Shown: piece by piece, positions 2,914 through 41,737 of the stretch
Position numbering within the stretch: position 1 is the stretch's first letter
Layout of the letters: each line of letters begins with the position of its first letter
Assembly (NCBI GenBank): GCA_042571515.1
Contig: JBHPHX010000003.1
Span: forward strand, 1-42,708
DNA: 42,708 bases
Direction of reading: 5' to 3'
Origin: Patescibacteria group bacterium
GTDB taxonomy: Bacteria > Patescibacteriota > WWE3 > UBA101185 > UBA10185
Made by a program: the position numbers and the translations under genes
Notes under the pieces: generated by a model
What the model was told of the DNA's origin: nothing
Databases searched by the model: none
The model's input: only the letters and a program-made list of their open reading frames with translations

Positions 2914-3530
2914 TAATTGTATTCTCTGGTGTTGATGGTTCAGGCAAGACTACGCTTGCACACAACTTAGTCAACAGATTGAAAAAGGAAAAAACACACG
3001 CTAAATACGTATATATGGGCAATTATTTCATCCTCACAGGTATTGTTAAATTTATACACTATGTGTATAGGCATATTAAAAAAACCCCTGTGGTGAGGGG
3101 GAATCCCCTTTTAGGTACTAAGGAAAAACCGATGTTAAGTAAATGTTGGTTATTTTTTTCTATACTTGAAAATCTCCTTGTATACATGAAATTGAAAATT
3201 CTTAGCATTTTGGGAATCGTAGTTATTTCTGACAGATATTTCTATGATAGGCTGCTTGGGTTAGAATATCATGGGTATTCTAGCAAGCTGCTTTCCCAAA
3301 TGTATCTGAAAATGACCCCACGCCCTACACATCTCTTCATGATAGATGTTGACGAAGAAGTTTCCTTACAAAGAGAAGTAAAAGAGAAACATCCATTAGA
3401 GTTTTACAAGTGTTTACGTCAAAAGTACATGAAACTTGCTACATTACTAAATGCAAAGGTACTTGATGGAAACATGTCAAAAGAAATAATGCTAGAAAAA
3501 GTTATGACTGAGATAAAAAATAAACCATAA
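2910..3530 (+). CDS. P-loop NMP-kinase-like protein (thymidylate-kinase-like fold)
   Basis: 206 aa. N-terminal Walker A IIVFSGVDGSGKTT and ISDRYFYD (DRY) motif as in dTMP-kinase-like proteins. ATGA overlap with the GT1 gene. Substrate unknown. Confidence 0.6.
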   Translation: MIIVFSGVDGSGKTTLAHNLVNRLKKEKTHAKYVYMGNYFILTGIVKFIHYVYRHIKKTPVVRGNPLLGTKEKPMLSKCWLFFSILENLLVYMKLKILSILGIVVISDRYFYDRLLGLEYHGYSSKLLSQMYLKMTPRPTHLFMIDVDEEVSLQREVKEKHPLEFYKCLRQKYMKLATLLNAKVLDGNMSKEIMLEKVMTEIKNKP

Positions 3531-3553
3531 GTAACAGATGGATATTACCAAAC

Positions 3554-5179: not shown

Positions 5180-7631
5180 TAAAACTTTTTCATTTATGAA
5201 AACTAAGCATATACAAGATTTCCTAGCGCTATTTATAATCACACTGTTTTCGCTGATTTCATTAACATGGGGTAATACCAATACGTTGATTGGATCTGGT
5301 GATAATTTCAAATCTATTGACCTTTACAAATATTTGAATACCTTGAATACCTCCTGGAATGGGCTAACTAATACAGGTGCCCCTGAATATTCCTTAGAAT
5401 ATCACTTGCCGTTTTCATTGATCTATTTTCCTTTAGGTACACTTGGAATACATCCAGTTTTTATACAAAAGCTATGGTTGGTTTTATCCCTCCTATTACC
5501 AGCTTTTTTTATGTATAAGTTCATTACAAAGTTTTTGGGAAATAAAATTCCACTACCAATTAGAATAATCACATCTCTTTTTTATATATTTAACCCCTTG
5601 ATGATAAAACACCCTTATGGTATTAGTCTTGCTAAATTCCCAGTATATCTAGCATTACCTCTCCTATGTTATCTCTTAATATCTATTTTTGAGGCTACTC
5701 TATGGAGAGACAAATTAAAGTTTGCCATTGCTCTTAGTTTAGGTACCTTGCTTATGGCAGCATCTTTTGGAAATGTGGCCAATATAGCGTCTGCAATAAT
5801 CATTTTAGGATCCCTTTTTGTCTTTGAAGTATTTTCCCAAAAAAACAAGTTAAGGCATATAGCTCTTATTATAAAAGTAGGTATATTAAGTCTTTTCCTT
5901 AATTTTTGGTGGATCTACAGCTCTTTTTATAGTCAATTTATGAATAGAAACCGCTTTTATGAGAGGGTAACGGCTTTTAAAACCAATTCAATCATTTCCG
6001 ATTCATTACGCTTGTTAGGCAGTTGGTCTCTACGTGCTGGACATAGAGGCATTGCATATTTTCCCTTTGGCCAATCCTATTATATGCCTATAGGTATTCT
6101 TATGACATATCTTGTCACCCTACTAGCCTTCTCTTCTATTGTGTTTTTGATTATCTATAGAAATCGGCTAAATAGGGTTTTACGCCACAAGGTGCTTCTG
6201 TTTTTATTTCTATCTCTATTAGGCATATTTTTGGTGAAAGGATCTGGGCCTCCTTTCGGCAAATGGTACACACTAGCATATGAATTTCTTCCATGGTTTA
6301 GAATGTTTCGGGAACCGTATACGAAATTTAGTCTAATTACAATGTTTTCTTTTTGTATTGCCTTAACCTTTAGTGCATATGCTTTCTACACTCTTATCAG
6401 AAAGCATGTTAAATTCGCCGCTATATTCATCTCTGTTGTTTTTCTCAGCCTCTTTATTGGAGTTGCATACCCAATGTTTAATGGAAACATTGTAGTAACA
6501 CATACTAACGGAGTGATAAAGCAATCAACAGTTATGGTACCTAGTTACTGGGAGGAAATTTCAAGATTCACCAATACTTTCCAGTTACAGGGTAGGACAC
6601 TCATGGTACCTAATAGTGGCTATTATGGCGCAAGTTATATCTGGAAAAGTGGTTACTCTGGAAGACCTTTTACACTATATTACAATGGAAATACCGTAAC
6701 ACTTAAGAAAATTCCCCCACTTAATCCTGGTGATGTTTTAATTAAACATTTATATGAAAGTTTAGAGAGTTACTTACAAGATGGAAGCCTATTGGATTTT
6801 TACAGATTTATAAATTTAGCAAGAATCCTAAATATAGGAAATGTTTTACAACAAAATGACTTTGACTGGCGAAATATTTCATTTGAAAATCCTATTAATT
6901 GGTCTCCAAATAACATGGAGATCTTCTTCGAAAATAATAACGAATTCTTCTACCAATTAGCGTCTTTTGGAAAATTTACAGAAACATATCTCAAAAGCAT
7001 TCCTTATATACATGGTGGTGAAAATATTCACAGAATAGAGGGGGACCCCACTGAAGATGTATATCTCGCAGAACTCTTTGGCAAAAACGCCTTGGAGTTA
7101 TATTCCCTAAGAGATGATCTTAAACTCCCTAAAATCTATATTCCTAATCTGATAGAAACGTTTGAGAATGAGGAAACTTTTTTTAACACATTGGCAAATA
7201 CCAAATATTTCAATACAAAACCTCTATTTGTTTCTGACCCGCAACTTTCAACAATAGTACCTGACCAAAATATAGATATAACATATGAGAAAAAAAGTTA
7301 TACCCGGTATAGAGTATATTTTTCAACACCCCTTAAAGAGCTTTTACCGGTAGTTTTTAGTGAAACCTTTGATAAAGAATGGTATTTAGCTGAATCATGT
7401 GGAATATTGTCCTGTAAGAAATATGCCAACTCCAAACACTTTTTAGCAAATCAATATGCAAATGGATGGTTAATCAAACCAGGAGATGAGAAATTCGGCT
7501 TGGGATCTTTTTACATTGTCCATAAATCAGAATTTAGACTTAAGACGGGCTTAATCATATCTGGGGCATTCTTGCTATTTAGTCTATGTACCATAATAGG
7601 GATTGGTAGAAAGAGAAAAAAAACGCTATGA
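5169..7631 (+). CDS. Large polytopic membrane protein, GT-C-like (AftD/DUF3367-like architecture)
   Basis: 820 aa. The N-terminal half has more than 10 hydrophobic helices. It is followed by a large soluble region, then a terminal TM helix and a KRKK tail. Overlaps the methyltransferase stop by 11 nt. Function inferred from architecture only. Confidence 0.6.
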   Translation: MLRNKTFSFMKTKHIQDFLALFIITLFSLISLTWGNTNTLIGSGDNFKSIDLYKYLNTLNTSWNGLTNTGAPEYSLEYHLPFSLIYFPLGTLGIHPVFIQKLWLVLSLLLPAFFMYKFITKFLGNKIPLPIRIITSLFYIFNPLMIKHPYGISLAKFPVYLALPLLCYLLISIFEATLWRDKLKFAIALSLGTLLMAASFGNVANIASAIIILGSLFVFEVFSQKNKLRHIALIIKVGILSLFLNFWWIYSSFYSQFMNRNRFYERVTAFKTNSIISDSLRLLGSWSLRAGHRGIAYFPFGQSYYMPIGILMTYLVTLLAFSSIVFLIIYRNRLNRVLRHKVLLFLFLSLLGIFLVKGSGPPFGKWYTLAYEFLPWFRMFREPYTKFSLITMFSFCIALTFSAYAFYTLIRKHVKFAAIFISVVFLSLFIGVAYPMFNGNIVVTHTNGVIKQSTVMVPSYWEEISRFTNTFQLQGRTLMVPNSGYYGASYIWKSGYSGRPFTLYYNGNTVTLKKIPPLNPGDVLIKHLYESLESYLQDGSLLDFYRFINLARILNIGNVLQQNDFDWRNISFENPINWSPNNMEIFFENNNEFFYQLASFGKFTETYLKSIPYIHGGENIHRIEGDPTEDVYLAELFGKNALELYSLRDDLKLPKIYIPNLIETFENEETFFNTLANTKYFNTKPLFVSDPQLSTIVPDQNIDITYEKKSYTRYRVYFSTPLKELLPVVFSETFDKEWYLAESCGILSCKKYANSKHFLANQYANGWLIKPGDEKFGLGSFYIVHKSEFRLKTGLIISGAFLLFSLCTIIGIGRKRKKTL

Positions 7632-7876: not shown

Positions 7877-7880
7877 TTCT

Positions 7881-8031
7881 GGTGACCCTAGTGTCTGAAA
7901 AATGGAACACACTGGTCCCATCAATTATACAAATTTCCGAGGTGCTTTCCACCCCTAACAACACCACACCCCTTGCCTATAATTAGAGGAGATATACACA
8001 TGGTATTAATACCCAATAGTTAAGAGAACAC
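7881..8031 (-). repeat. 151-bp repeat copy 1 (tRNA-Glu-3'-end-like terminus on the minus strand)
   Basis: About 89% identical by eye (about 17 mismatches) to 8624..8774. The minus-strand end reads ...gtgtgttccatttttcagacactagggtcacca, resembling the tRNA-Glu T-arm/acceptor GGGGGTTCGATTCCCCCTGGGGTCACCA. Confidence 0.85.
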
Positions 8032-8128: not shown

Positions 8129-8536
8129 TTATGACATGTAGAGCGGCCTTGTCCAGGTACAGATACGAATGAGAATCTCCCCAATTATAAATGCCAATGC
8201 AGCTAATAGCACCAAGCCTACAATAAGACCACTTTTGTCTTTGGAGTACTCTTCCTCGTAGTAGCGGTTCTTTCCTGGTTTAAACCAGAAAAATCCAACA
8301 TCTTGGAGCCATGAAGTTATGTATTCCAATGCCCATCCGCAAAACGCCGAGTATCCAATACGTGAGATGGCCAGTAAGGCCCAGAAGCCTACCAAGTTGT
8401 TAGGATAGAGGTTATCTATAAAGGCAAGAAACCCCGTAATTTTAAGCACCTGAGCCACAATAATGAGAAAGCCCACGATGAGTAACGCCAACAGAATACC
8501 CGTGATTGACTGAGTTAATTCCTTTAACAGTTTCAT
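8129..8536 (-). CDS. Hypothetical membrane protein (135 aa, about 4 TM helices)
   Basis: AAGGAG RBS 7 nt upstream of the ATG. Own TTGACA/TAATAT promoter and terminator. Bracketed by the two 151-bp repeats. Confidence 0.65.
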   Translation of the reverse strand: MKLLKELTQSITGILLALLIVGFLIIVAQVLKITGFLAFIDNLYPNNLVGFWALLAISRIGYSAFCGWALEYITSWLQDVGFFWFKPGKNRYYEEEYSKDKSGLIVGLVLLAALAFIIGEILIRICTWTRPLYMS

Positions 8537-8610: not shown

Positions 8611-8623
8611 ACTATAGGATAAT

Positions 8624-8774
8624 GGTGACCCTGGTGTCTGAAAAATGGAACACACTAATGCCATCAATTATACAAATTTCCGAGATGCTTCCCACCCCTA
8701 ACAACACCACACCCCTTGCCTATCGTTGAGAGAGATATATTTATAGTATTAATACCCAATAGCTAAGAGAACAC
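8624..8774 (-). repeat. 151-bp repeat copy 2 (tRNA-Glu-3'-end-like terminus)
   Basis: Paralog of 7881..8031. The minus-strand end ...cagacaccagggtcacca is immediately followed by ttatcctatagtTTGACA. Confidence 0.85.
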
Positions 8775-8800: not shown

Positions 8801-9208
8801 TTAACCGCGCAAATCGAAATTTTTGTCAATGCTCTCTTCTATGACTCCCATCATAGCTTTTTTTACCTTGTCATCTTTTCCATAAGTTTCTGAACTAATT
8901 CCATATTTTTCTGCATTATAGAGCCTCTCACCGTTGACAAATCCAATAAAACCATCCATCCTTTCCAGAGGTACAGTTCCATCCTTATCTAGGCTTTCAC
9001 CAATTTCCACAAAAGCCTCATGAGCCTTTTTACTGTAAGATAAAAACGGGCTACCCTCCTTTGATGATAAAAACGGGTCATTTCCTCCTAATTTAGCTTC
9101 TAGGCTCTCTGCTTCCTTTTTAAACATTTCAGAGAGGTCTGATGACGAGAATTCCTTTTCGACTGATTCTCGAACTTCATCTGGAGTAATTTGTTCATTT
9201 TTTGACAT
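8801..9208 (-). CDS. Hypothetical acidic protein (135 aa)
   Basis: Long ORF with coding-like composition and no recognisable motif. A TATAAA-like -10 box lies about 5 nt before the ATG. Confidence 0.55.
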   Translation of the reverse strand: MSKNEQITPDEVRESVEKEFSSSDLSEMFKKEAESLEAKLGGNDPFLSSKEGSPFLSYSKKAHEAFVEIGESLDKDGTVPLERMDGFIGFVNGERLYNAEKYGISSETYGKDDKVKKAMMGVIEESIDKNFDLRG

Positions 9209-9436: not shown

Positions 9437-9769
9437 TTATCCTCCGCAGCAGTCCCAAGAAGGGAGCTCGCTTCCGCAAGAGCAAGGACAACTGCAGAAT
9501 GCAGTATCTTTGTTGCAGGCGTAGCACCAGGCGGGGTCGTCGTATTCCTCAAAGTCATTCTCTGGGTAGCCGAGGTGGTCATCGGAAGAGGACCGTCCCT
9601 CCTCTATGGCTGCCAGGTTATTTTGCAGTCTGTCCATTTCTTCTTTGGGGACTATTTCATGCAACTGAATCATTGCTGAATTATAATCCGCTTCCTCAGG
9701 TGCATAAGGAGCAGCGTTTCTTATCGCTAGCTCTTGAACCTGTTCCTGCCATGTTTTATTGCTTGTCAT
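9437..9769 (-). CDS. Acidic 110-aa protein with Cys-rich C-terminus (9 Cys in the last 30 aa)
   Basis: AAGGAGG RBS 5 nt upstream of the ATG. Own consensus promoter and strong terminator. C-terminus WCYACNKDTAFCSCPCSCGSELPSWDCCGG. The local GC is clearly above the surroundings, so all three overlapping frames stay open. Confidence 0.7.
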   Translation of the reverse strand: MTSNKTWQEQVQELAIRNAAPYAPEEADYNSAMIQLHEIVPKEEMDRLQNNLAAIEEGRSSSDDHLGYPENDFEEYDDPAWCYACNKDTAFCSCPCSCGSELPSWDCCGG

Positions 9770-9820
9770 CTCAGCCTCCTTGGCTTTAAGATTGGTTAGT
9801 TACCTCATGTTCTTAATTTG

Positions 9821-9863
9821 AAAACAAAAAATGCCAAGTTTTGCTTGGAACTGTGGGCAAAAC
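9821..9863 (-). promoter_or_regulatory. Terminator-like hairpin with a competing upstream pairing in the 5' UTR (candidate attenuator)
   Basis: Minus strand reads CCAAG-caaaa-CTTGG then cATTTTTTGTTTT, 50 nt before the start codon. Upstream GTTTTGC (9863..9857) can pair with GCAAAAC, which overlaps the hairpin. Confidence 0.35.
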
Positions 9864-9904
9864 AGGTTCTACTCAAAACTCAGCGTTCTTTAACTTACAA
9901 GCTA

Positions 9905-9933
9905 ATTATAGTACATAACCCTAACTCTGTCAA
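9905..9933 (-). promoter_or_regulatory. Perfect consensus sigma70 promoter TTGACA-17-TATAAT
   Basis: Minus strand reads gctatcctatagtaTTGACAgagttagggttatgtacTATAAT. Carries the same TATCCTATAGT upstream module as the other two promoters. Confidence 0.7.
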
Positions 9934-10081
9934 TACTATAGGATAGCATGCTTAATTTATGCTAAACACGGTCAACTGGGGTACTATAGGTGTTAGTTTT
10001 GACGATTTGCTTGCTTAATAAGGCTATTTGCGTCGTTAAAGACCGATTATACGACGTTGTATTCGACTCCCATACAGAGCT

Positions 10082-10696
10082 TTATCCAGTCTGGCAATCT
10101 CTATGCTTAGCAGCATAATATGGGCCATAATTTTCACACTCCCTTAATATAGTTTTTTTGCGAGGATGTCTTGATGGTATTTGCTTTGCAAATATTTTCA
10201 TTTGTGTTGGATGGGTTATATCGAGATAGAACATTACTTTGTCCTTGGTACCTACCCTCCTCAACGCTGGGTATATCAGTAAAGGTTCCATAATCTTCGC
10301 TATCTTAATAAGGTTCTCTCGTCTTTTTTGGTAAATCATGATTTCGTATGTGTCTTTCTTTGTCCACTTACGCTTTCTTATAGAACCATCTGTGTCAAAC
10401 ACCCCAGCCACAAACTCCTCTGGATGTTTTAGTTTCGGTAAATGTAACCAGTAAAAGTTTTTCTTAAACGGAACGAACATGTGGTCACAAGGGTTTTTTG
10501 CTAAACCTGCATATATTCTATGGCAAGTTTCTTTTCCTCGTCCCAAACGTGGTTCCAATGATTGCATTAACTTCATCAAAACATCCCTATAGCCATCCTC
10601 AGCAGTAGTAATTTTTATCCCATATTTGTTATATGGGGTTCCATCCCCTAGGTAAACCCCCAATAAATATTCGTAGGTCCTTCTATCCATAACCAC
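10082..10696 (-). CDS. LAGLIDADG-family homing endonuclease (double-motif, free-standing)
   Basis: 204 aa. Two LAGLIDADG-type motifs, YLLGVYLGDGT and FVAGVFDTDGSI, about 85 aa apart. GTG (10696) or ATG (10690) start with a TATAAT box 9 nt upstream. Confidence 0.85.
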   Translation of the reverse strand: MVMDRRTYEYLLGVYLGDGTPYNKYGIKITTAEDGYRDVLMKLMQSLEPRLGRGKETCHRIYAGLAKNPCDHMFVPFKKNFYWLHLPKLKHPEEFVAGVFDTDGSIRKRKWTKKDTYEIMIYQKRRENLIKIAKIMEPLLIYPALRRVGTKDKVMFYLDITHPTQMKIFAKQIPSRHPRKKTILRECENYGPYYAAKHRDCQTG

Positions 10697-10717: not shown

Positions 10718-10729
10718 GGGGGGGGGGGG
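10718..10729. repeat. G12/C12 homopolymer tract
   Basis: 12 consecutive G in an AT-rich intergenic region, starting 6 nt upstream of the LAGLIDADG -10 box (minus-strand sense). Confidence 0.95.
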
Positions 10730-11798: not shown

Positions 11799-11914
11799 TG
11801 ATGACCCCAGGGGGAAGAACGCGAAACTGCGTTTCGCTACCCTTTCTCTCGTTTCACTCGAAAAACGTAAGAACCCCCTGCTTCGCTAGAACTCTCACTT
11901 CCACTAAGGACATC
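11799..11914 (-). pseudogene. Truncated tRNA-Glu-like copy (D-arm to 3' end) with a ~56-nt GC-rich insert in the T-loop
   Basis: Minus strand reads GTCCTTAGTGGAAG...GGGGGTTC[ttacgtttttcgagtgaaacgagagaaagggtagcgaaacgcagtttcgcgttctt]CCCCCTGGGGTCATCA, against the real GGGGGTTCGATTCCCCCTGGGGTCACCA. No 5' acceptor strand is present. Confidence 0.7.
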
Positions 11915-11952: not shown

Positions 11953-12027
11953 TGGTGACCCCAGGGGGAATCGAACCCCCGTTTACAGGATGAAAACCTG
12001 TTGTCCTAACCACTAGACGATGGGGCC
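11953..12027 (-). tRNA. tRNA-Glu (anticodon UUC), CCA encoded
   Basis: Manual cloverleaf: GGCCCCA TC GTCT AGTGGTTA GGAC A ACAGG TTTTCAT CCTGT AAAC GGGGG TTCGATT CCCCC TGGGGTC A CCA (75 nt). Confidence 0.9.
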
Positions 12028-12060
12028 CTACTACGCCGAGGCTTTGTAGGGCAAGCCAAG
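12028..12060 (+). repeat. Mini hairpin element abutting the tRNA-Glu 5' end
   Basis: CCCTAC-tacgccgaggcttt-GTAGGG-caagccaag. A near-identical element (TCCTAC-tacgccaaggcttc-GTAGGA-caag) is inserted in pseudo-tRNA-His copy 1 at 14032..14061. Confidence 0.75.
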
Positions 12061-12069
12061 TACCCCCGC

Positions 12070-13914: not shown

Positions 13915-13995
13915 GGTGACTGTTCATCTCGCCTGCTGGTGCAGGTTTGCTGGCGCCACCGCTTTGCGGGGTCTAATGTTCAGGGGGTAAGGACC
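13915..13995 (+). pseudogene. Pseudo-tRNA-His 5' fragment 0 (degenerate) with a 52-nt GC-rich insert after position ~8
   Basis: GGTGACTGT[tcatctcgcctgctggtgcaggtttgctggcgccaccgctttgcggggtcta]ATGTTCAGGGGGTAAGGACC, against the real GGTGACCGTAGTTCAGTGGTAGAACGCC. Confidence 0.6.
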
Positions 13996-14018
13996 TTCGC
14001 TCAGCCAAATGTTTGTTT

Positions 14019-14069
14019 GGTGACCGTAGTTTCCTACTACGCCAAGGCTTCGTAGGACAAGCAGTGGTA
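14019..14069 (+). pseudogene. Pseudo-tRNA-His 5' fragment 1 (positions -1..21) with a clean 30-nt hairpin insertion
   Basis: GGTGACCGTAGTT[tcctactacgccaaggcttcgtaggacaag]CAGTGGTA. The flanking 21 nt are identical to the real gene. Preceded by the same 17-nt leader, cagccaaatgtttgttt, as the real tRNA. Confidence 0.8.
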
Positions 14070-14124
14070 CAATACCTAATTGAGAGGCTACCTTGGCTTG
14101 CCACACGTAGCTTTAGCGAAGTAT

Positions 14125-14207
14125 GGTGACCGTAGTTCAGTGGTAAGAACCTTCGCTTCGCGAAGAACCTTTCCTTTTGCTTCGCAAAACGTAGAACGCC
14201 GCTCTGT
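14125..14207 (+). pseudogene. Pseudo-tRNA-His 5' fragment 2 (positions -1..~35) with a 46-nt insert in the D-loop flanked by a TA duplication
   Basis: GGTGACCGTAGTTCAGTGGTA[agaaccttcgcttcgcgaagaacctttccttttgcttcgcaaaacg]TAGAACGCCGCTCTGT, then diverges inside the anticodon loop. Confidence 0.8.
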
Positions 14208-14241
14208 TTAGAGTTATAATCTAACAGCCAAATGTTTGTTT

Positions 14242-14317
14242 GGTGACCGTAGTTCAGTGGTAGAACGCCGCTCTGTGGAGGCGGATGTCGTGGGTTCGAG
14301 TCCCATCGGTCACCCCA
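14242..14317 (+). tRNA. tRNA-His (anticodon GUG) with encoded G-1 and CCA
   Basis: G(-1) GTGACCG TA GTTC AGTGGTA GAAC G CCGCT CTGTGGA GGCGG ATGTC GTGGG TTCGAGT CCCAT CGGTCAC C CCA. Confidence 0.9.
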
Positions 14318-14383
14318 TTTTTAGAGGTTGTTATAACAACAATTCCAACGACCAATTAATATTCAGCTTGACAGCGGGTAGGG

Positions 14384-14737
14384 TTATAAAGATTTGGTAA
14401 ACACATAAATTGGAGTAATAGTACTGTTGATAAGAAAACCAGTAGCCAGCCCTGTAAAGATAAAGGAACCTATGGCCATAAAGATTCCTAATTTGTACAT
14501 CAAGTCACTTTTGTCTTTCAGTATAAGATTAAAATTTGCTAAAGCTACAAATATATTCACAATACCCAAAAAGATTAGTATAGCGAGGTATGGATATGAA
14601 ATATTAACTTCCGTTTCAACATCTAAGTTCGCGTACATATTCTGCAATCTAGGCATTGTAATGAACAAGTAAAAGAGACCCAGGGTCAGTTGAATAATAC
14701 CAAAAAAGGAATTAATCAAACCAATAATCTTTTTCAT
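14384..14737 (-). CDS. Hypothetical membrane protein (about 117 aa, 4 TM helices)
   Basis: Hydrophobic ORF. Start moved to ATG 14737 (MKKIIGL) because a TATAAT box ends 6 nt upstream. The track start at 14755 is a TTG. Confidence 0.55.
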   Translation of the reverse strand: MKKIIGLINSFFGIIQLTLGLFYLFITMPRLQNMYANLDVETEVNISYPYLAILIFLGIVNIFVALANFNLILKDKSDLMYKLGIFMAIGSFIFTGLATGFLINSTITPIYVFTKSL

Positions 14738-14789
14738 AGCGTAATTATACACCAACCGAAGAGACCAGTTTCCGCGCTAGGACGCCTTG

Positions 14790-14845
14790 CAATACTCCGA
14801 TTTTTGAATAAATCTGGTTCAAACTACCATTCACCAGCCACCCCA
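14790..14845 (+). repeat. R1: tRNA-His-3'-like intergenic repeat
   Basis: caatactccgatttttgaataaatctggttcaaactaccattcaccagccacccca. Family consensus is ...TGAATAAATnTGGTTCAAAnTAG...ATCAGCCACCCCA. Followed directly by the promoter module ttatcctatagtTTGACA. Confidence 0.8.
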
Positions 14846-14857
14846 TTATCCTATAGT

Positions 14858-14886
14858 TTGACACTGTATTGAGTTTGATATAGAAT
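14858..14886 (+). promoter_or_regulatory. Sigma70 promoter TTGACA-17-TAGAAT with the TATCCTATAGT module
   Basis: ccattatcctatagtTTGACActgtattgagtttgataTAGAAT. Drives CDS 14935..15234. Confidence 0.7.
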
Positions 14887-14934
14887 CACCGCAACGTAAA
14901 TCATTCCAAAATAACTAGTGAAAAGGAGAATTAG

Positions 14935-15234
14935 ATGAGATTAATAAATTATTTAAGTAGATTTTGGTTCAAATTATTTCCGTTAAAAAGACGTAGAAGT
15001 TTCAGTCCTCATAAAGTTGAGATAAGCATTAATCCGCCCGAAAACAGAAAAACCTTAAGAGGGCCTGTAGACATTTATTGGTTTGGACTAGTTTTCGAAG
15101 CATGTGAAATAAATTATGGAGATGAAAACGAGTGCCAATCAGTAGTTAAATTTCCAAACGGAAAATTTGGTTATGCTAACTATTCAAGAGATGATATTGA
15201 AGGCTTAAATAAAGACGATATCCATAGCTTGTAA
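14935..15234 (+). CDS. Hypothetical protein (99 aa)
   Basis: AAGGAG RBS 7 nt upstream. Own promoter and terminator. No recognisable motif. Confidence 0.6.
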   Translation: MRLINYLSRFWFKLFPLKRRRSFSPHKVEISINPPENRKTLRGPVDIYWFGLVFEACEINYGDENECQSVVKFPNGKFGYANYSRDDIEGLNKDDIHSL

Positions 15235-15264
15235 ATATAGAAAAGGAAATGAGATACAATTAAA

Positions 15265-15303
15265 AGGCCCATATAGGTTGTCCCGATGGGCCTTTTTCTT
15301 TTT
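15265..15303 (+). terminator. Rho-independent terminator
   Basis: AGGCCCAT-ataggttgtcccg-ATGGGCCT followed by TTTTTCTTTTTT. Confidence 0.75.
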
Positions 15304-15313
15304 TACACCAGAA

Positions 15314-15377
15314 CCTCCTGAAAAAACCCCAATTTCTGAATAAATTTGGTTCAAAGTAGCCCCCATCAACCACCCCA
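15314..15377 (+). repeat. R2: tRNA-His-3'-like intergenic repeat
   Basis: cctcctgaaaaaaccccaatttctgaataaatttggttcaaagtagcccccatcaaccacccca. Confidence 0.8.
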
Positions 15378-15411
15378 GGGTTTTTGGTTTTAATGGCAGT
15401 CTTTTAACCAC

Positions 15412-16071
15412 CTATATATTTCGTAAAGTCTCCAGTACGTGTGCGTTAGAAGAATCTATATTAGAAGGGTTGTACAAAACGGTTTTCCAACCCAACCCCC
15501 TCGCTGTCTCAATATGCGCATTACTATTTTCCACAAATAAAATTTTATCTGGAGAGGTTTTCGCTAAGCCAGAAGCTAGTTTAAATATCTCTGGTTGGGG
15601 TTTCTGGAAACCCACCTCACTTGAGTCTACAATTACGTCCCATTCAATGTTTGGTAGTAGTCCCTTGGATTCTATTGCACCCAACATTCCTGGATACATG
15701 TTTGTTAGCAGACCCACCTTGTATTTTCTTTTAAGTTCTAAAATTATTTCACCAAGCGATGGGTTAGGTTCAAAGCGATTAACAAAATCATTAAGGAGGG
15801 AATAATCCCCAGGGAGTTTCAGTTTAAACGTATTTTTTAGAATGCTAATAAAACTATCGGTTTCTTTATCACCAAGACAAAATTTAGATTCCTCAATGCT
15901 GAATAGTTGCCCTAATTTATCTCTATCCTCCTTGCGTACCCCCAACTCATCTAACATCCTCTCCCATTTATCAGTTTTAGAAAAATCTAGAATAACTACA
16001 CCGCCAACATCAAAGTATATAAACTCAATAGCCATCTCTTTCTCAATATTATTCCCTGAGGACTCTTCCAT
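15412..16071 (-). CDS. HAD-superfamily hydrolase (subfamily IA-like)
   Basis: Motif I FIYFDVGGVV (the DxGG variant seen in some IA phosphatases), GLLTNM (motif II region) and ILFVENSNAHIETARGLGW (motif III/IV region). An alternative start MAIEF lies at 16035. Confidence 0.75.
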   Translation of the reverse strand: MEESSGNNIEKEMAIEFIYFDVGGVVILDFSKTDKWERMLDELGVRKEDRDKLGQLFSIEESKFCLGDKETDSFISILKNTFKLKLPGDYSLLNDFVNRFEPNPSLGEIILELKRKYKVGLLTNMYPGMLGAIESKGLLPNIEWDVIVDSSEVGFQKPQPEIFKLASGLAKTSPDKILFVENSNAHIETARGLGWKTVLYNPSNIDSSNAHVLETLRNI

Positions 16072-16177
16072 ATCGCAAAGCCTTTCAACTATATAGACTT
16101 ATTATCATTATACATAACTGTACTCAAACTCAAAATTTTGTTGTCTAATTATCTAGCCTCAGGTACAATTACAGTGT

Positions 16178-16390
16178 ATGTCAAATGGTAGTGATGTAGA
16201 ACTTGGTAGTATGGATGCAAGCATCCGCGAAACTGATTTGGGAAACCCTGAGCAAGAGTACCATGACGAGCAGGAGGAGTTGAGGAGTGGTGTAACTCCT
16301 GAGGAAGAAGAGATGGAAAAGAGGGATTGGGATGAAAGAGAGCGAAAAAAATGGGACCCTGAGGCTGTAAAAGACGATAAGTCTAAGTAA
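16178..16390 (+). CDS. Small highly acidic hypothetical protein (70 aa)
   Basis: ORF with a TACAAT box 8 nt before the ATG. Low-complexity E/D-rich sequence, so coding status is uncertain. Confidence 0.4.
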   Translation: MSNGSDVELGSMDASIRETDLGNPEQEYHDEQEELRSGVTPEEEEMEKRDWDERERKKWDPEAVKDDKSK

Positions 16391-16391
16391 A

Positions 16392-16512
16392 CCCCTGAAA
16401 AACCTCAATTTCTGAATAAATAAGGTTCAAACTAGTACTTATCAGCCACCCCATATATAAAGGCTGTAACAACAGTGTTTTCAGAGATACCCAAACATAC
16501 AATTCGAACCAG
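16392..16512 (+). repeat. R3: tRNA-His-3'-like repeat plus a diverged copy of the tRNA-His downstream flank
   Basis: cccctgaaaaacctcaatttctgaataaataaggttcaaactagtacttatcagccacccca, then tatataaaggctgtaacaacagtg...gatacccaaacatacaattcgaacc (parallels R4). Confidence 0.8.
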
Positions 16513-16537
16513 ACCTTAATTGATATATAATATAAAT

Positions 16538-17278
16538 ATGAAGGATGCATACAATGATATTTTTAAAGATAAAGAAAGAATACTAGTAGTTTTCGCTCAC
16601 CCTGACGACGCGGAAATATATTGTGGGGGAACTATTGCACGATTAACTCAGGATAGTAAGAAAGTACGTATTGTGAAGGTGTCTTCAGGAAATAAGGGCT
16701 CTAGAGAGGACAATATCTCTGAAAGAGACCTCAAGGCATTAAGGGAAAAAGAAGATTCAGAAGCCATGAAGGTTTTAGGTATAGCCTCAGAAGACAATAT
16801 TTACTTAAACCTGGGGGATGGCGAAATCAATAACGATATAAAGACAATTGAGCTGCTAGCAAAGCAAATTAGAATATTCAAGCCTGATTTAATCATTACT
16901 CATAATCCAGAGGATGTGATTATTAAATTTGATGAAAATGATAGCTGGGTTAACCACAGGGACCATAGAAACACGGGCATTTCTGCAGTGGACGCCTCAT
17001 ATCCATATAGCAGAGATTTATTGTTTTTTCCCGAGCATTTTGATGATGAAAAAGCAACATCACATTCGGTAGTAGAATATCTTTTCGTTGACTCATACAA
17101 TCACGAGGACGAGATATTTATAAATGTAACGGATACCGCTGGAACGAGAACAAAGGCAACAGCAAGCCACGCATCTCAATACTCAGAGGAATATTCAAAA
17201 GAAACAACGGATTATTTTACAATTAGAGAAGGTTCAAATAAAAGATGGGAGCGATTTAGGTACGTAAAGGCAGATTAA
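16538..17278 (+). CDS. PIG-L/LmbE-family N-acetylglucosaminyl deacetylase
   Basis: VVFAHPDDAEIYCGGT and NHRDHRNTG (HxDH) motifs. Start set at ATG 16538, 6 nt after TATAAT (16526..16531). The track start at 16520 is a TTG. Confidence 0.8.
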   Translation: MKDAYNDIFKDKERILVVFAHPDDAEIYCGGTIARLTQDSKKVRIVKVSSGNKGSREDNISERDLKALREKEDSEAMKVLGIASEDNIYLNLGDGEINNDIKTIELLAKQIRIFKPDLIITHNPEDVIIKFDENDSWVNHRDHRNTGISAVDASYPYSRDLLFFPEHFDDEKATSHSVVEYLFVDSYNHEDEIFINVTDTAGTRTKATASHASQYSEEYSKETTDYFTIREGSNKRWERFRYVKAD

Positions 17279-17295
17279 ACTAAAAGCGTAGAAAA

Positions 17296-17408
17296 CACTT
17301 CAATCTCCTCATAAATCTGGTTCAAAGTAGCACTCATCAGCCACCCCATTTTTAGAGGTTGTTATAACAACGTTTCCGAAGATACCCAAACGATACCTCG
17401 AACCAAAA
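17296..17408 (+). repeat. R4: tRNA-His-3'-like repeat carrying an exact 30-nt copy of the tRNA-His 3' boundary
   Basis: 17342..17371 (caccccatttttagaggttgttataacaac) is identical to 14311..14340, the last 7 nt of tRNA-His plus 23 nt of its downstream flank. Upstream part: cataaatctggttcaaagtagcactcatcagc. Confidence 0.9.
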
Positions 17409-17497
17409 CTATATAATCTGTAAAACTTACAACCTGCTTTGTTGTATAATGCAGCCAAATGAGATGAGTGGAATAATCTGACTGAAAGGAGGTTGAG

Positions 17498-17839
17498 ATG
17501 GACTGGAAAGGTAAGATTGGTGAACATCATGATGGCGAAGAGGGTAGGTTGGCTATAGAAAAAGAAGTGGAATATGAAGCTAATTTAAAAAAGTACAGGA
17601 TAAGATTTAGGTGCCCCGTGTGTGGCGTTGAGCCAAAAGGGCCTAGGAAGGGAATGCTTCGGCCAGTACCCCTTAATGGTGCAGGAACTTGGACCTCTCT
17701 TGATAATAACAAACCCTCTCCGATTACTTATTGGACCTCACCCCCAAAAGGATATTGGCAGTGCACCTCTTGTAAGTTATGGGCATGCCCTAATTGTATA
17801 TATCGTGAAATTTGCAAAACCTGTGCTGAGAAACTGTAA
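17498..17839 (+). CDS. Zinc-ribbon / Cys-rich hypothetical protein (113 aa)
   Basis: AAGGAGG RBS 5 nt upstream. CPVCG ... CTSCKLWACPNCIYREICKTCAEK gives several CxxC pairs. Confidence 0.65.
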   Translation: MDWKGKIGEHHDGEEGRLAIEKEVEYEANLKKYRIRFRCPVCGVEPKGPRKGMLRPVPLNGAGTWTSLDNNKPSPITYWTSPPKGYWQCTSCKLWACPNCIYREICKTCAEKL

Positions 17840-17864
17840 CCACCCAACACCAAATAAGTCGAAT

Positions 17865-17910
17865 GACCCCCTTAGTTCTAAATGAGCCTTTGGGGGTTGT
17901 TTCTTTTCTA
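17865..17910 (+). terminator. Candidate terminator
   Basis: ACCCCC-20 nt loop-GGGGGT followed by TGTTTCTTTT. The large loop keeps confidence moderate. Confidence 0.45.
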
Positions 17911-17918
17911 CACAAAAA

Positions 17919-17980
17919 CCTCTTGAAAAACCTCAATTTCTGAATAAATTTGGATCAATTATTGATTATCAGCCACCCTA
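17919..17980 (+). repeat. R5: tRNA-His-3'-like intergenic repeat (most diverged 3' end)
   Basis: cctcttgaaaaacctcaatttctgaataaatttggatcaattattgattatcagccacccta. Confidence 0.75.
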
Positions 17981-18024
17981 AGTGCTTCCTCGCAAACTCC
18001 TCTATTCGAGTAGCACCCAAATAG

Positions 18025-41139: not shown

Positions 41140-41251
41140 TGTTCTATTGTAACAAATTAAGGGGAGGGCCCAAACCTAGGTTTCTTGTGTATTTTGATGT
41201 TAGTTATAGTACAATATCGGGGTAAGAAAGGGCCCAAACCTATCTTATCAT

Positions 41252-41322
41252 GCCTCTGTCTGACTCGCGTCGCTCGTCAGCGATCTCGCTGCGCTCGATC
41301 TAGTGCTCAATGAATAGAGCAC
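41252..41322 (+). pseudogene. Pseudo-tRNA-Arg 5' fragment with a 43-nt GC-rich insert after position ~8
   Basis: GCCTCTGT[ctgactcgcgtcgctcgtcagcgatctcgctgcgctcgatcta]GTGCTCAATGAATAGAGCAC, against the real GCCTCCGTGGCTCAATGGATAGAGCAC. The same cat leader triplet precedes both. Confidence 0.7.
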
Positions 41323-41341
41323 CAGTCAGGAGAGAAACCAT

Positions 41342-41417
41342 GCCTCCGTGGCTCAATGGATAGAGCACTCGGCTTCGAACCGAGGGGTTGGGGGTTCGAG
41401 TCCCTCCGGAGGCGCCA
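41342..41417 (+). tRNA. tRNA-Arg (anticodon UCG), CCA encoded
   Basis: GCCTCCG TG GCTC AATGGATA GAGC A CTCGG CTTCGAA CCGAG GGGTT GGGGG TTCGAGT CCCTC CGGAGGC G CCA. Confidence 0.9.
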
Positions 41418-41457
41418 TCCTTCGCTCTTAATAGAGCTACGGATGGTAAACCATTTT

Positions 41458-41520
41458 GGGGGAGTCTGCTTCGTTGCACTACGCAGCGTTTCGCTACGCG
41501 AAACTAATGCTCAGTGATTA
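41458..41520 (+). pseudogene. Pseudo-tRNA-Lys 5' fragment 1 with a 41-nt GC-rich insert
   Basis: GGGGGAGT[ctgcttcgttgcactacgcagcgtttcgctacgcgaaacta]ATGCTCAGTGATTA, against the real GGGGGAGTAGCTCAGTGGTAGAGC. The insert contains the perfect hairpin GTTTCGC-tac-GCGAAAC. Confidence 0.7.
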
Positions 41521-41565
41521 TGTACGATTGACAATATAGTCTTAAGTTTATTCAATCTTCAATCT

Positions 41566-41646
41566 GGGGGAGTCTAGTTCGCTTTACTCACTAGCGACCT
41601 CACTTTGTTCGGTCTAATGCTCAGTGGTTGAGCAATCGGACCTTAA
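41566..41646 (+). pseudogene. Pseudo-tRNA-Lys 5' fragment 2 (to the anticodon loop) with a 43-nt insert
   Basis: GGGGGAGT[ctagttcgctttactcactagcgacctcactttgttcggtcta]ATGCTCAGTGGTTGAGCAATCGGACCTTAA, against the real ...GCTCAGTGGTAGAGCAATCGGCTCTTAA. Homology ends in the anticodon loop. Confidence 0.75.
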
Positions 41647-41662
41647 ATTAATTAAGAAACTA

Positions 41663-41737
41663 GGGGGAGTAGCTCAGTGGTAGAGCAATCGGCTCTTAAC
41701 CGATCGGTCGTGGGTTCGAATCCCACCTCCCTCACCA
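41663..41737 (+). tRNA. tRNA-Lys (anticodon CUU), CCA encoded
   Basis: GGGGGAG TA GCTC AGTGGTA GAGC A ATCGG CTCTTAA CCGAT CGGTC GTGGG TTCGAAT CCCAC CTCCCTC A CCA. Confidence 0.9.

Follow-up and report, generated by a model that had tools for sequence, protein, structure and literature searches.

Partial tRNA gene copies interrupted by GC-rich double hairpins at the tRNA loci of a WWE3 contig

Archaeal split and intron-containing tRNAs show non-canonical interruptions by GC-rich structured inserts, with 5' halves that end at the anticodon loop. Here we analyze a single metagenomic contig of 42.7 kb from candidate division WWE3, hereafter the window (all counts given for the window refer to that length), in which partial self-copies of tRNA genes, interrupted by GC-rich hairpins, lie beside the intact genes for tRNA-Arg, tRNA-Lys, tRNA-His, and tRNA-Glu. 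WWE3 belongs to the Patescibacteria or Candidate Phyla Radiation (CPR), bacteria with genomes of ~1 Mb and single-copy tRNA genes that are usually regarded as streamlined.

Several described systems resemble this locus in part. SegB, a free-standing GIY-YIG homing endonuclease of phages T4 and T6, cuts inside tRNA genes at a conserved T-loop motif, and SegB breaks drive the recombination-dependent tandem amplification of tRNA-containing segments (PMC2330249, PMC13096335). AT-rich mitochondrial genomes carry double-hairpin elements (DHEs) or GC clusters, which are mobile, have constrained structures, and in some cases are the same in different species (PMC10085805, PMC4478555); examples are the DHEs of Allomyces and Schizosaccharomyces (PMC10085805) and yeast GC42 (PMC4478555), and the reference list of PMC4478555 includes a study by Yin et al. 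(1981) of GC-rich palindromes flanking tRNA genes in Neurospora. When pelagiphages such as HTVC011P integrate, a 5' fragment of the tRNA gene remains on the upstream side and the intact gene on the downstream side (10.1101/410191). Finally, Dada DNA transposons insert at a fixed site, TAGCTC, at positions 8-13 of eukaryotic tRNA genes (PMC3706591).

Our full-text literature searches turned up no description of hairpin-split partial copies adjacent to tRNA genes in Patescibacteria. The components are already known, namely partial duplications driven by homing endonucleases, DHE or GC-cluster elements, and attachment-site remnants at tRNA genes; what we consider new is their combination in a CPR chromosome and the exact specificity of one hairpin family for the junction between tRNA positions 8 and 9 (8|9). 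The reading that we favor, and to which we give about an even chance of being right, is that the partial copies are non-functional remnants left by nuclease cassettes and hairpin elements whose activity is aimed at tRNA genes.

Interrupted copies upstream of tRNA-Arg and tRNA-Lys

ARAGORN and Rfam agree on four intact tRNAs in the window. Two of these, tRNA-Arg(TCG) at 41342..41417 (+ strand, 69.9 bits) and tRNA-Lys(CTT) at 41663..41737 (+ strand, 75.9 bits), have an encoded CCA end and are each single-copy. An earlier note on this DNA had claimed that one 5' partial self-copy precedes tRNA-Arg and two precede tRNA-Lys, and that all three share one layout, the acceptor 5' strand plus T, an insert running from CT to CTA, and a D arm; both claims are correct, and we measure the inserts at 41-43 nt. 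The pseudo-Arg copy starts with the leader CAT, the acceptor 5' strand, and U8 (41249..41259, + strand), where GCCTCTGT at 41252-41259 departs from GCCTCCGT of the real gene by a C6 -> T change. Its insert, a GC-rich double hairpin of 43 nt, occupies 41260..41302 (+) between tRNA positions 8 and 9. G9, an extra T, and the D arm follow as far as position 27 (41303..41322, +); here GCTCAATGAATAGAGCAC (41305-41322) matches the real tRNA-Arg at 17 of 18 nucleotides, and a local 6-bp hairpin, GTGCTC/GAGCAC, is possible. The spacer between pseudo-Arg and the intact gene is CAGTCAGGAGAGAAACCAT (41323..41341, +), and within it AGTCAGGAGAG (41324-41334) is inverted and complementary relative to CTCTGTCTGACT (41255-41266), so that pseudo-Arg is closed into one structured module.

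The two pseudo-Lys copies repeat this arrangement on the same strand. Pseudo-Lys1 opens with an acceptor 5' strand and U8, GGGGGAGT (41458..41465, +), identical to the real gene at 8/8 positions, followed by a 41-nt double hairpin (41466..41506, +), A9, an extra T, and the start of the D arm, GCTCAGTG, and finally a strongly decayed AT-rich tail (41507..41565, +). In pseudo-Lys2, the same GGGGGAGT (41566..41573, +) leads into a 43-nt double hairpin (41574..41616, +), after which come A9, an extra T, the D arm, the 5' strand of the anticodon stem, and the anticodon loop ACCTTAA (41617..41646, +). The part after this insert thus reads A, T, GCTCAGTGGTTGAGCAATCGGACCTTAA, and homology to the real tRNA-Lys ends at the anticodon loop (41646), 16 nt short of the intact gene. 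The Arg, Lys1, and Lys2 inserts all begin with CT and all end with CTA.

Because the base after the insert equals the true nucleotide 9 (G in Arg, A in Lys and His), the insert lies exactly between positions 8 and 9. An extra T precedes G10 in 4/4 copies with an insert at this junction, which are Arg, Lys1, Lys2, and one copy at tRNA-His (His-A). We compared the layout with chance by searching the 340 nt upstream for two 8-mers lying 35-61 nt apart, one from the acceptor strand and one from the D arm, with no more than one mismatch in either. Shuffled sequences yielded these two blocks in 10-33 of 20,000 trials per locus, compared with one observed instance at Arg, two at Lys, and one at His. 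Chance would thus rarely produce this layout.

The fragments are not functional tRNAs. We rejected a split or intron-containing tRNA: neither ARAGORN nor Rfam (E up to 10) recovers a complete cloverleaf, the copies extend no further than position 27 or the anticodon loop, and in the window the complementary 3' strands belong only to intact genes. Unlike the archaeal cases, these copies are found in a bacterium, next to intact genes, with no 3' partner halves in the window and no splicing endonuclease context. The term "pseudo-halves" that the earlier note gave them is fair, since none of them is a functional or split tRNA. We also considered Lys1 as a decayed full-length copy, in that TTCAATCT resembles a T loop or 3' end; this resemblance is suggestive only and the idea could not be demonstrated.

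A double-hairpin insert family and the copies at tRNA-His and tRNA-Glu

The same theme recurs at tRNA-His(GTG) (14243-14317) and, as a 3' variant, at tRNA-Glu(TTC) (11953-12027, minus strand), the two other intact genes reported by ARAGORN and Rfam. Three 5' partial tRNA-His copies, units A, B, and C, lie at 13915..14241 (+). Unit A contains a 52-nt insert after position 8 (13924-13975) and its homology ends at position 27; in unit B, a 32-nt hairpin insert lies close to where the D loop begins (14032-14063); and unit C contains a 46-nt insert in the D loop (14146-14191) and runs to the anticodon loop (14207), the same stopping point as in pseudo-Lys2. A 17-nt leader, CAGCCAAATGTTTGTTT, occurs twice at tRNA-His, having been duplicated together with part of the gene. 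At tRNA-Glu, the partial copy is downstream of the intact gene (11800..11905, minus strand) and comprises the 3' part, with a 52-nt two-hairpin insert in the T loop (11819-11870). A separate 41-nt GC-rich hairpin element (12027-12067) abuts the 5' end of the intact tRNA-Glu.

We scanned 30 tRNA genes, in the window and in loci of relatives, for adjacent partial self-copies on the same strand and found them at 4/4 tRNA genes of the window. Among the relatives' loci covered, the scan was positive only at tRNA-Glu of the closest relative, one genome represented by L016, L017, and L039, in which a short tRNA-His copy was spotted by eye. The seven insert sites all fall at positions that are unpaired or at the edge of a stem in the cloverleaf: four are at 8|9, and the others lie in or at the edge of the D loop and, in two genomes, in the T loop. 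The inserts are structured, related sequences at fixed cloverleaf positions.

The four inserts at position 8|9 (Arg, Lys1, Lys2, and His-A) form a family of GC-rich sequences, 41-52 nt long with two hairpins each, whose GC content of 45-62% stands against 36.5% for the window. A MAFFT alignment of the four has 17 invariant columns (GT, TCG, GCG, C.CT, CTA.T). When two helices are placed on this alignment, which was not fitted to any structure, 88.6% of the cells are paired, and both sides have changed in 6/9 pairs; sliding the partners by 1-3 columns lowers the pairing to 18-37%. None of 500 shuffles gave covariation as good as that observed, a comparison that involves four sequences only and a structure derived from the same four. 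A covariance model, R1, scores the copies at 45-60 bits (59.8 for Arg, 51.1 for Lys1, 60.3 for Lys2) and the rest of the window at no more than 9.7 bits, and it has no match in 147 kb of related and CPR-like loci. Given that R1 matches are confined to these four copies, all within tRNA fragments with zero elsewhere in the 42.7 kb or in the 147 kb from relatives, the family has so far been seen only at tRNA position 8|9.

At the ends of the inserts, we found no consistent parse for a target-site duplication: the junctions read T8|CT...CTA|N9 followed by the extra T. There are no terminal inverted repeats at the inserts and the copies are confined to tRNA fragments, which separates them from repetitive extragenic palindromes (REP), miniature inverted-repeat transposable elements (MITE), and bacterial interspersed mosaic elements (BIME). 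Rfam, at gathering and at permissive thresholds (E up to 10), reports only the four intact tRNAs. What orthologous loci lack is the whole fragment, not merely the insert.

The remaining inserts, outside the position-8 set, belong to looser families. The His-B insert agrees at 27/30 nt with the sequence that abuts tRNA-Glu on its 5' side; permuted arms of one hairpin (GTTTCGC/GCGAAAC) are common to the Lys1 and Glu inserts; and loop 1 of the Lys2 insert, AGTTCGCTTTACTCACTA, matches 17/18 nt just downstream of tRNA-Leu in L013-15. A 14-mer of the His-C insert recurs in the Glu insert of the closest relative. His-C also contains a 26-mer, AGAACCTTCGCTTCGCGAAGAACCTT (window 14146-14171), that is identical in two unrelated, CPR-like contigs of low GC content, L027 (~799-824) and L035 (~2359-2384), just past stop codons in both, and a variant is present in L050 (about 164-190). 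This 26-mer is a hairpin, CTTCGC-TTC-GCGAAG, between AGAACC direct repeats. More generally, the inserts are rich in short TCGC/GCGAA repeats and in GCGAAGC-type mini-hairpins, and the motif TTCGCT is enriched at tRNA loci, with 7 of its 18 occurrences lying in a total of about 1 kb.

We scanned metagenomes with a 19-nt motif shared by inserts and obtained 47 loci, most of them chance matches in high-GC coding DNA, so that only 4-5 low-GC contigs were informative. The pseudo-Lys layout had 0 matches in public metagenomes, and neither the Lys-fragment pattern nor a CCTAC hairpin pattern matched anything in viral contigs. An origin of the inserts from rRNA was rejected: only a 13-mer, CGCGAAGAACCTT, matches (E. 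coli 16S 970-982, a universal segment), probably by coincidence, and the other inserts have no match.

Related loci and a putative nuclease route

In related genomes, the orthologous Arg/Lys locus is found in several states. Two loci with a MacB protein at 60% identity, L072/L073, have a small ORF (open reading frame), tRNA-Arg, 105 nt, and tRNA-Lys, with no partial copies and with the leader CAT|GCC present; this arrangement is probably ancestral. Copies are likewise absent from L013-15 (MacB 57%), where an ORF lies between Arg and Lys, from L009 (MacB 74%), where tRNA-Arg is inverted, and from L069 (RibD_C 78%), where tRNA-Lys is immediately upstream of RibD_C. By this comparison, the fragments are additions particular to this lineage, and other WWE3 genomes have the locus in a clean form. 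We had considered an orphan ribosome-binding site and ATG before tRNA-Arg as the remnant of a lost ORF, and dropped the idea because the CAT|GCC leader is ancestral, being kept in L072/L073. As a side observation, a 190-nt cluster of four GC-rich hairpins occupies the usual tRNA-Lys spot upstream of RibD_C in L070 (62% relative, 9760-9950); it folds at z = -5.5, has no Rfam match, and has one loop, GAGCGAAAGCGA, that resembles motifs of the window inserts.

A further state is that of L010-12 (MacB 61%), which come from three samples and are orthologous to the Arg/Lys locus of the window. They contain, in order, the promoter, tRNA-Arg positions 1-24, a hairpin (CCTGCC-TGCC-GGCAGG), an 83-aa GIY-YIG ORF (PF01541, 60.7 bits, E = 1.7e-16), and an intact tRNA-Arg. 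In L010, identical copies of tRNA-Arg positions 1-24 flank the ORF on both sides (interval 6070-6417; also in L011 and L012); its final codons overlap the start of the intact tRNA-Arg, and its stop codon lies inside the tRNA. The hairpin resembles the inner hairpin of His-A (CCTGC-TGGT-GCAGG). All three contigs (3/3) end inside tRNA-Arg, which suggests strain heterogeneity or a repeat-induced assembly break. These loci have the layout of the window, and in them a nuclease gene is still in place. We found no viral relative of the GIY-YIG protein.

The SegB system offers several resemblances: the SegB gene is a small GIY-YIG gene among tRNA genes, as the L010 gene is flanked by a partial and a full tRNA-Arg; SegB cuts conserved motifs within tRNA genes; and repair of its breaks copies or duplicates neighboring tRNA segments in tandem. 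A partial duplication flanking the nuclease ORF together with an intact copy is found in L010, and the window has the same layout without the ORF; correspondingly, a nuclease ORF stands at the tRNA locus in L010-12 but not at Arg/Lys of the window. There are also differences. SegB acts in a phage, whereas the locus here is on a cellular CPR chromosome; the L010 protein consists of an 83-aa catalytic domain only, with predicted activity; the window lost its nuclease or never had one; and SegB repeats carry whole tRNA genes rather than 5' halves with hairpin inserts.

For the inserts themselves, the nearest likeness is to mitochondrial DHEs and GC clusters. Like those, they are short (~40 nt) and GC-rich in a small AT-rich genome, comprise two adjacent, constrained hairpins with compensatory changes in both, include some copies identical across genomes, and are associated with tRNA genes, recalling the occasional insertion of such elements in structural RNA genes. 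They differ in that the genome is bacterial, that they are found only at position 8|9 of tRNA fragments rather than spread through intergenic DNA, and that no AG-type target duplication is evident; the likeness is one of form. Dada elements share site-specific insertion in the same conserved stretch of the tRNA. Yet these are eukaryotic, kilobase-sized, and equipped with a DDE transposase, make target duplications of 6-7 bp, and rely on hundreds of tRNA gene copies.

The comparative loci point toward a process behind the copies in which mobile nuclease cassettes and hairpin elements act on tRNA genes. In the scheme that we favor, small free-standing nuclease cassettes would settle in or beside a tRNA gene, the nuclease would cut conserved tRNA sequence, and recombinational repair would duplicate part of the gene, one intact copy always surviving. 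The redundant fragment would then gather GC-rich hairpin inserts at loops and junctions (8|9, the D loop, and the T loop), re-duplicate in tandem (Lys1/Lys2; His A-C), and lose the nuclease gene. Because the tRNA genes are single-copy and essential, only events that spare one intact copy would survive, and the disrupted copy would thus always be found beside an intact gene. At present, the remnants are part of the 5' leader of the intact tRNA genes and are probably co-transcribed with them. We infer the nuclease origin of the breaks, the order of events, and the mobile rather than functional nature of the hairpin elements.

Several observations weigh against this scheme. No gene for a nuclease, integrase, transposase, or reverse transcriptase adjoins the Arg/Lys array, and tblastn detects no remnant of a GIY-YIG ORF in the window. 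The link to GIY-YIG is thin: it comes from one related genome in three samples, and the tRNA copy there is without a position-8 insert. The position-8 family, whose mobility is putative, is seen only inside tRNA fragments and has no clean target-site duplication; no conspecific contigs were found in which strain polymorphism could be seen, and no exact-protein matches to the window turned up in other samples. Moreover, the covarying hairpins could signal a function at the RNA level, and the same could be meant by two features of the pseudo-acceptor strands considered below, a shared C6-to-U change that keeps G-U pairing and a pseudo-His acceptor that tracks the tRNA of its own genome.

The closest relative (SBP 71%) was examined in two independent assemblies, L016 (Logan) and L017 (Joint Genome Institute). 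It has a 3' tRNA-Glu fragment with an insert in the T loop, at the same site as in the window but with a different insert sequence, and in both genomes the fragment matches the genome's own tRNA-Glu. It also has a short 5' tRNA-His fragment, ATGGTGGTTGT|CT.... Both fragments are base-for-base identical between L016 and L017. About 60 nt past tRNA-His, the L017 contig ends in a GC-rich low-complexity stretch (2440-2497, GTAGCGAGCGAAGGCGAGCGAGAGGGGGTCGACGG...) with a composition like that of the pseudo-Arg insert.

These surveys bear on the central argument of the earlier note, that the recurrence of one layout reflects a systematic process rather than chance decay. Other tRNA loci do carry such copies, at 4/4 genes in the window and at Glu and His in the closest relative; and the inserts do form an alignable family that a covariance model separates from the rest of the window. 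Neither of the two outcomes that the note had named as refuting its argument thus occurred, and the argument is supported.

Other explanations and neighboring features

A more novel reading, to which we give a modest chance, has two forms. In one, a bacterial double-hairpin element or an RNA- or structure-guided process would recognize the folded tRNA gene and insert exactly at 8|9, perhaps mobilized in trans by small GIY-YIG nucleases, and cells would survive only through the coupling of this event to a partial duplication of the gene; in the other, the resulting "decoy" 5' halves would have been co-opted as leader modules, which would base-pair with the 3' acceptor strand and so control when the downstream tRNA matures.

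We consider it unlikely that the fragments are functional structured leaders, in which a pseudo-5' half and double hairpin act in cis as a pre-tRNA module, the acceptor-like strand pairing with the downstream 3' strand or the hairpins binding a factor, to control RNase P processing, stability, or folding. The covariation of the two hairpins across the four copies is what such a role would predict, although mobile hairpin elements would covary too if only folded copies propagate. Folding also speaks for it. Pseudo-Arg folds as a closed module with an 11-bp closing stem (z = -2.3) that leaves the tRNA acceptor stem undisturbed, and the fold of the Lys array is better than that of shuffled sequences (z = -3.3); in it, the pseudo-acceptor strands compete for the real 3' strand. 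Between Lys1 and Lys2, the acceptor and D-arm blocks are perfectly kept while the remainder is ~40% diverged.

The pseudo-acceptor strands are a further point in favor of a leader function. C6 -> T is the only substitution in three independent ones, Arg (41257), His of the window (13921), and His of L016 (~6406), and in each of them a G-U pair with the real 3' strand is preserved. The change is unlikely to stem from CpG decay, given the many CpGs retained in the neighboring inserts. In addition, the pseudo-His acceptor differs between the window and L016 in step with the real tRNA of each genome. Nevertheless, none of the other relatives sampled has the module upstream of these tRNAs, and it therefore cannot be a general requirement. 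Copy number and truncation points vary, Lys1 is visibly decaying, and no Rfam family matches.

Slightly less probable is that the fragments are attachment-site scars, left by the repeated site-specific integration and loss of elements whose attP would have carried the 5' part (Arg, Lys, His) or the 3' part (Glu) of a tRNA. The anticodon loop and the T loop are the classic crossover sites of tRNA-targeting integrases, and fragments do end at the anticodon loop (Lys2, His-C) or T loop (Glu). The orientation of the copies, direct and beside an intact gene, is that of the pelagiphage precedent, where a 5' tRNA fragment lies upstream and the intact gene downstream (10.1101/410191). A cassette array at tRNA-His, described below, has ~60-nt repeats that end in a tRNA-His-like 3' end, and L018 has the array as well. 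What the scars would leave unexplained is the exact 8|9 insert in four fragments. Also, there is no recombinase Pfam match among the window ORFs and no integrase, transposase, or reverse transcriptase gene, only 16-34 nt separate fragment from intact gene with no element left between, and, in contrast to integrase remnants, the copies are mostly 5' parts and contain internal inserts. Patterns derived from the fragments have no match in viral contigs; with no viral relative of the GIY-YIG protein either, a phage origin was rejected.

A purely local origin seems improbable to us; here the tRNA genes, hairpin-prone and highly transcribed, would gain tandem copies and quasi-palindromic filler through replication slippage or template switching, and neither a mobile element nor a nuclease would take part. 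The copies are indeed tandem and on the same strand, the leader was duplicated with part of the gene at tRNA-His and tRNA-Arg, and the short repeats and mini-hairpins of the inserts are of the kind that such filler would contain. But independent filler would not produce an alignable family with the same CT...CTA ends, the same position, and covarying helices at three tRNAs, and 26-mers identical in other genomes, a kind of sharing that is in part already observed, would not be expected. Two further models, ectopic spacer integration of a CRISPR-like kind and a long target duplication made by a transposase, were rejected, since the repeated and variable blocks come in the wrong order for them, with the insert within the copy and not between copies.

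An assembly artefact, arising from a loop of the assembler through short tRNA repeats or from the chaining of strain variants, is hardly credible: the window is one metagenomic contig with no second sample and the L010-12 contigs all end inside tRNA-Arg, but the Arg/Lys repeat blocks of 8-13 nt are below assembler k-mer sizes and the analogous Glu and His fragments are identical in the independent assemblies L016 and L017.

If the copies are indeed remnants of nuclease cassettes and hairpin elements, CPR tRNA loci can be hot spots of selfish DNA, with partial self-copies beside the gene and GC-rich double hairpins at fixed cloverleaf positions as the signature of that activity. SegB-type, nuclease-driven duplication of tRNA segments would then reach from phages to cellular genomes, double-hairpin elements of the mitochondrial type would extend to bacteria, and there would be a concrete, testable candidate for a mechanism of insertion specific to one tRNA position. 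In practice, tRNA annotation can be misled by such fragments and assemblies can be broken, as in the three related contigs, and pre-tRNA processing may be affected.

The window is otherwise unremarkable in content. WWE3 homologues of its MacB-type permease and SBP_bac_5 protein are 53-74% identical, its proteins as a whole are closest to WWE3 (Katanobacteria), and a WWE3 metagenome-assembled genome is its top match in the genome collection. Its genes are ordinary chromosomal ones, including glycosyltransferases, leucyl-tRNA synthetase (LeuRS), ABC transporters, and the like.

Downstream of tRNA-His (14318-17990) lies a tandem array of ~5 single-gene cassettes, which contain a 123-aa membrane protein, a 99-aa ORF, a HAD hydrolase, a PIG-L deacetylase, and a 113-aa ORF. 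A direct repeat of 60-100 nt bounds each cassette and ends in ...TGGTTCAAAnTAG..CATCAGCCACCCCA, an end that mimics the tRNA-His 3' end with an acceptor stem of the L018 type, not the window's own. The array has the look of small cassettes integrated serially at tRNA-His, although there is no integrase in the window. L018 itself (61% relative; intervals 2993-3023 and 3500-3550) has at the tRNA-His position a "mini" gene, GGTGGCTGTAGTTCAGTG|ATCAGCCACCCCA, in which the 5' 18 nt are fused to the 3' 13 nt, followed by a cassette bounded by the tRNA-His cassette repeat of the window type. ARAGORN finds no intact tRNA-His on this 7.4-kb contig.

Near the Arg/Lys array, a GC hairpin, CCATCC...GGATGG, begins in the CCA end of tRNA-Arg (41415..41446, +), contains the TTCGCT motif in its loop, and is followed by ATTTT. 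The earlier note had also pointed to a 14-nt direct repeat upstream of the array. This repeat, AGGGCCCAAACCTA, is present twice as claimed, with copy 2 at 41229..41242 (+), 10 nt upstream of the start of pseudo-Arg, while copy 1 lies at 41165..41178 (+), one nucleotide from the coordinate of 41166 given there; copy 1 overlaps a 12-nt palindrome, AAACCTAGGTTT (41172-41183). The window has exactly two occurrences, and two or more matches with at most two mismatches arose in 3/100 shuffles. We regard it as a weak feature in the divergent promoter region and assign it no meaning.

Finally, two further features of the window were noted. A 152-nt direct repeat, 89% identical, at 7880-8031 and 8623-8774 accompanies two ORFs of equal length (135 aa; 8129-8536 and 8801-9208) that have no Pfam match. 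A free-standing LAGLIDADG_3 ORF of 204 aa (10082-10696, minus strand) lies ~1.1 kb from the tRNA-Glu fragment, with a G run of ~12 nt beside it at about 10718-10729.

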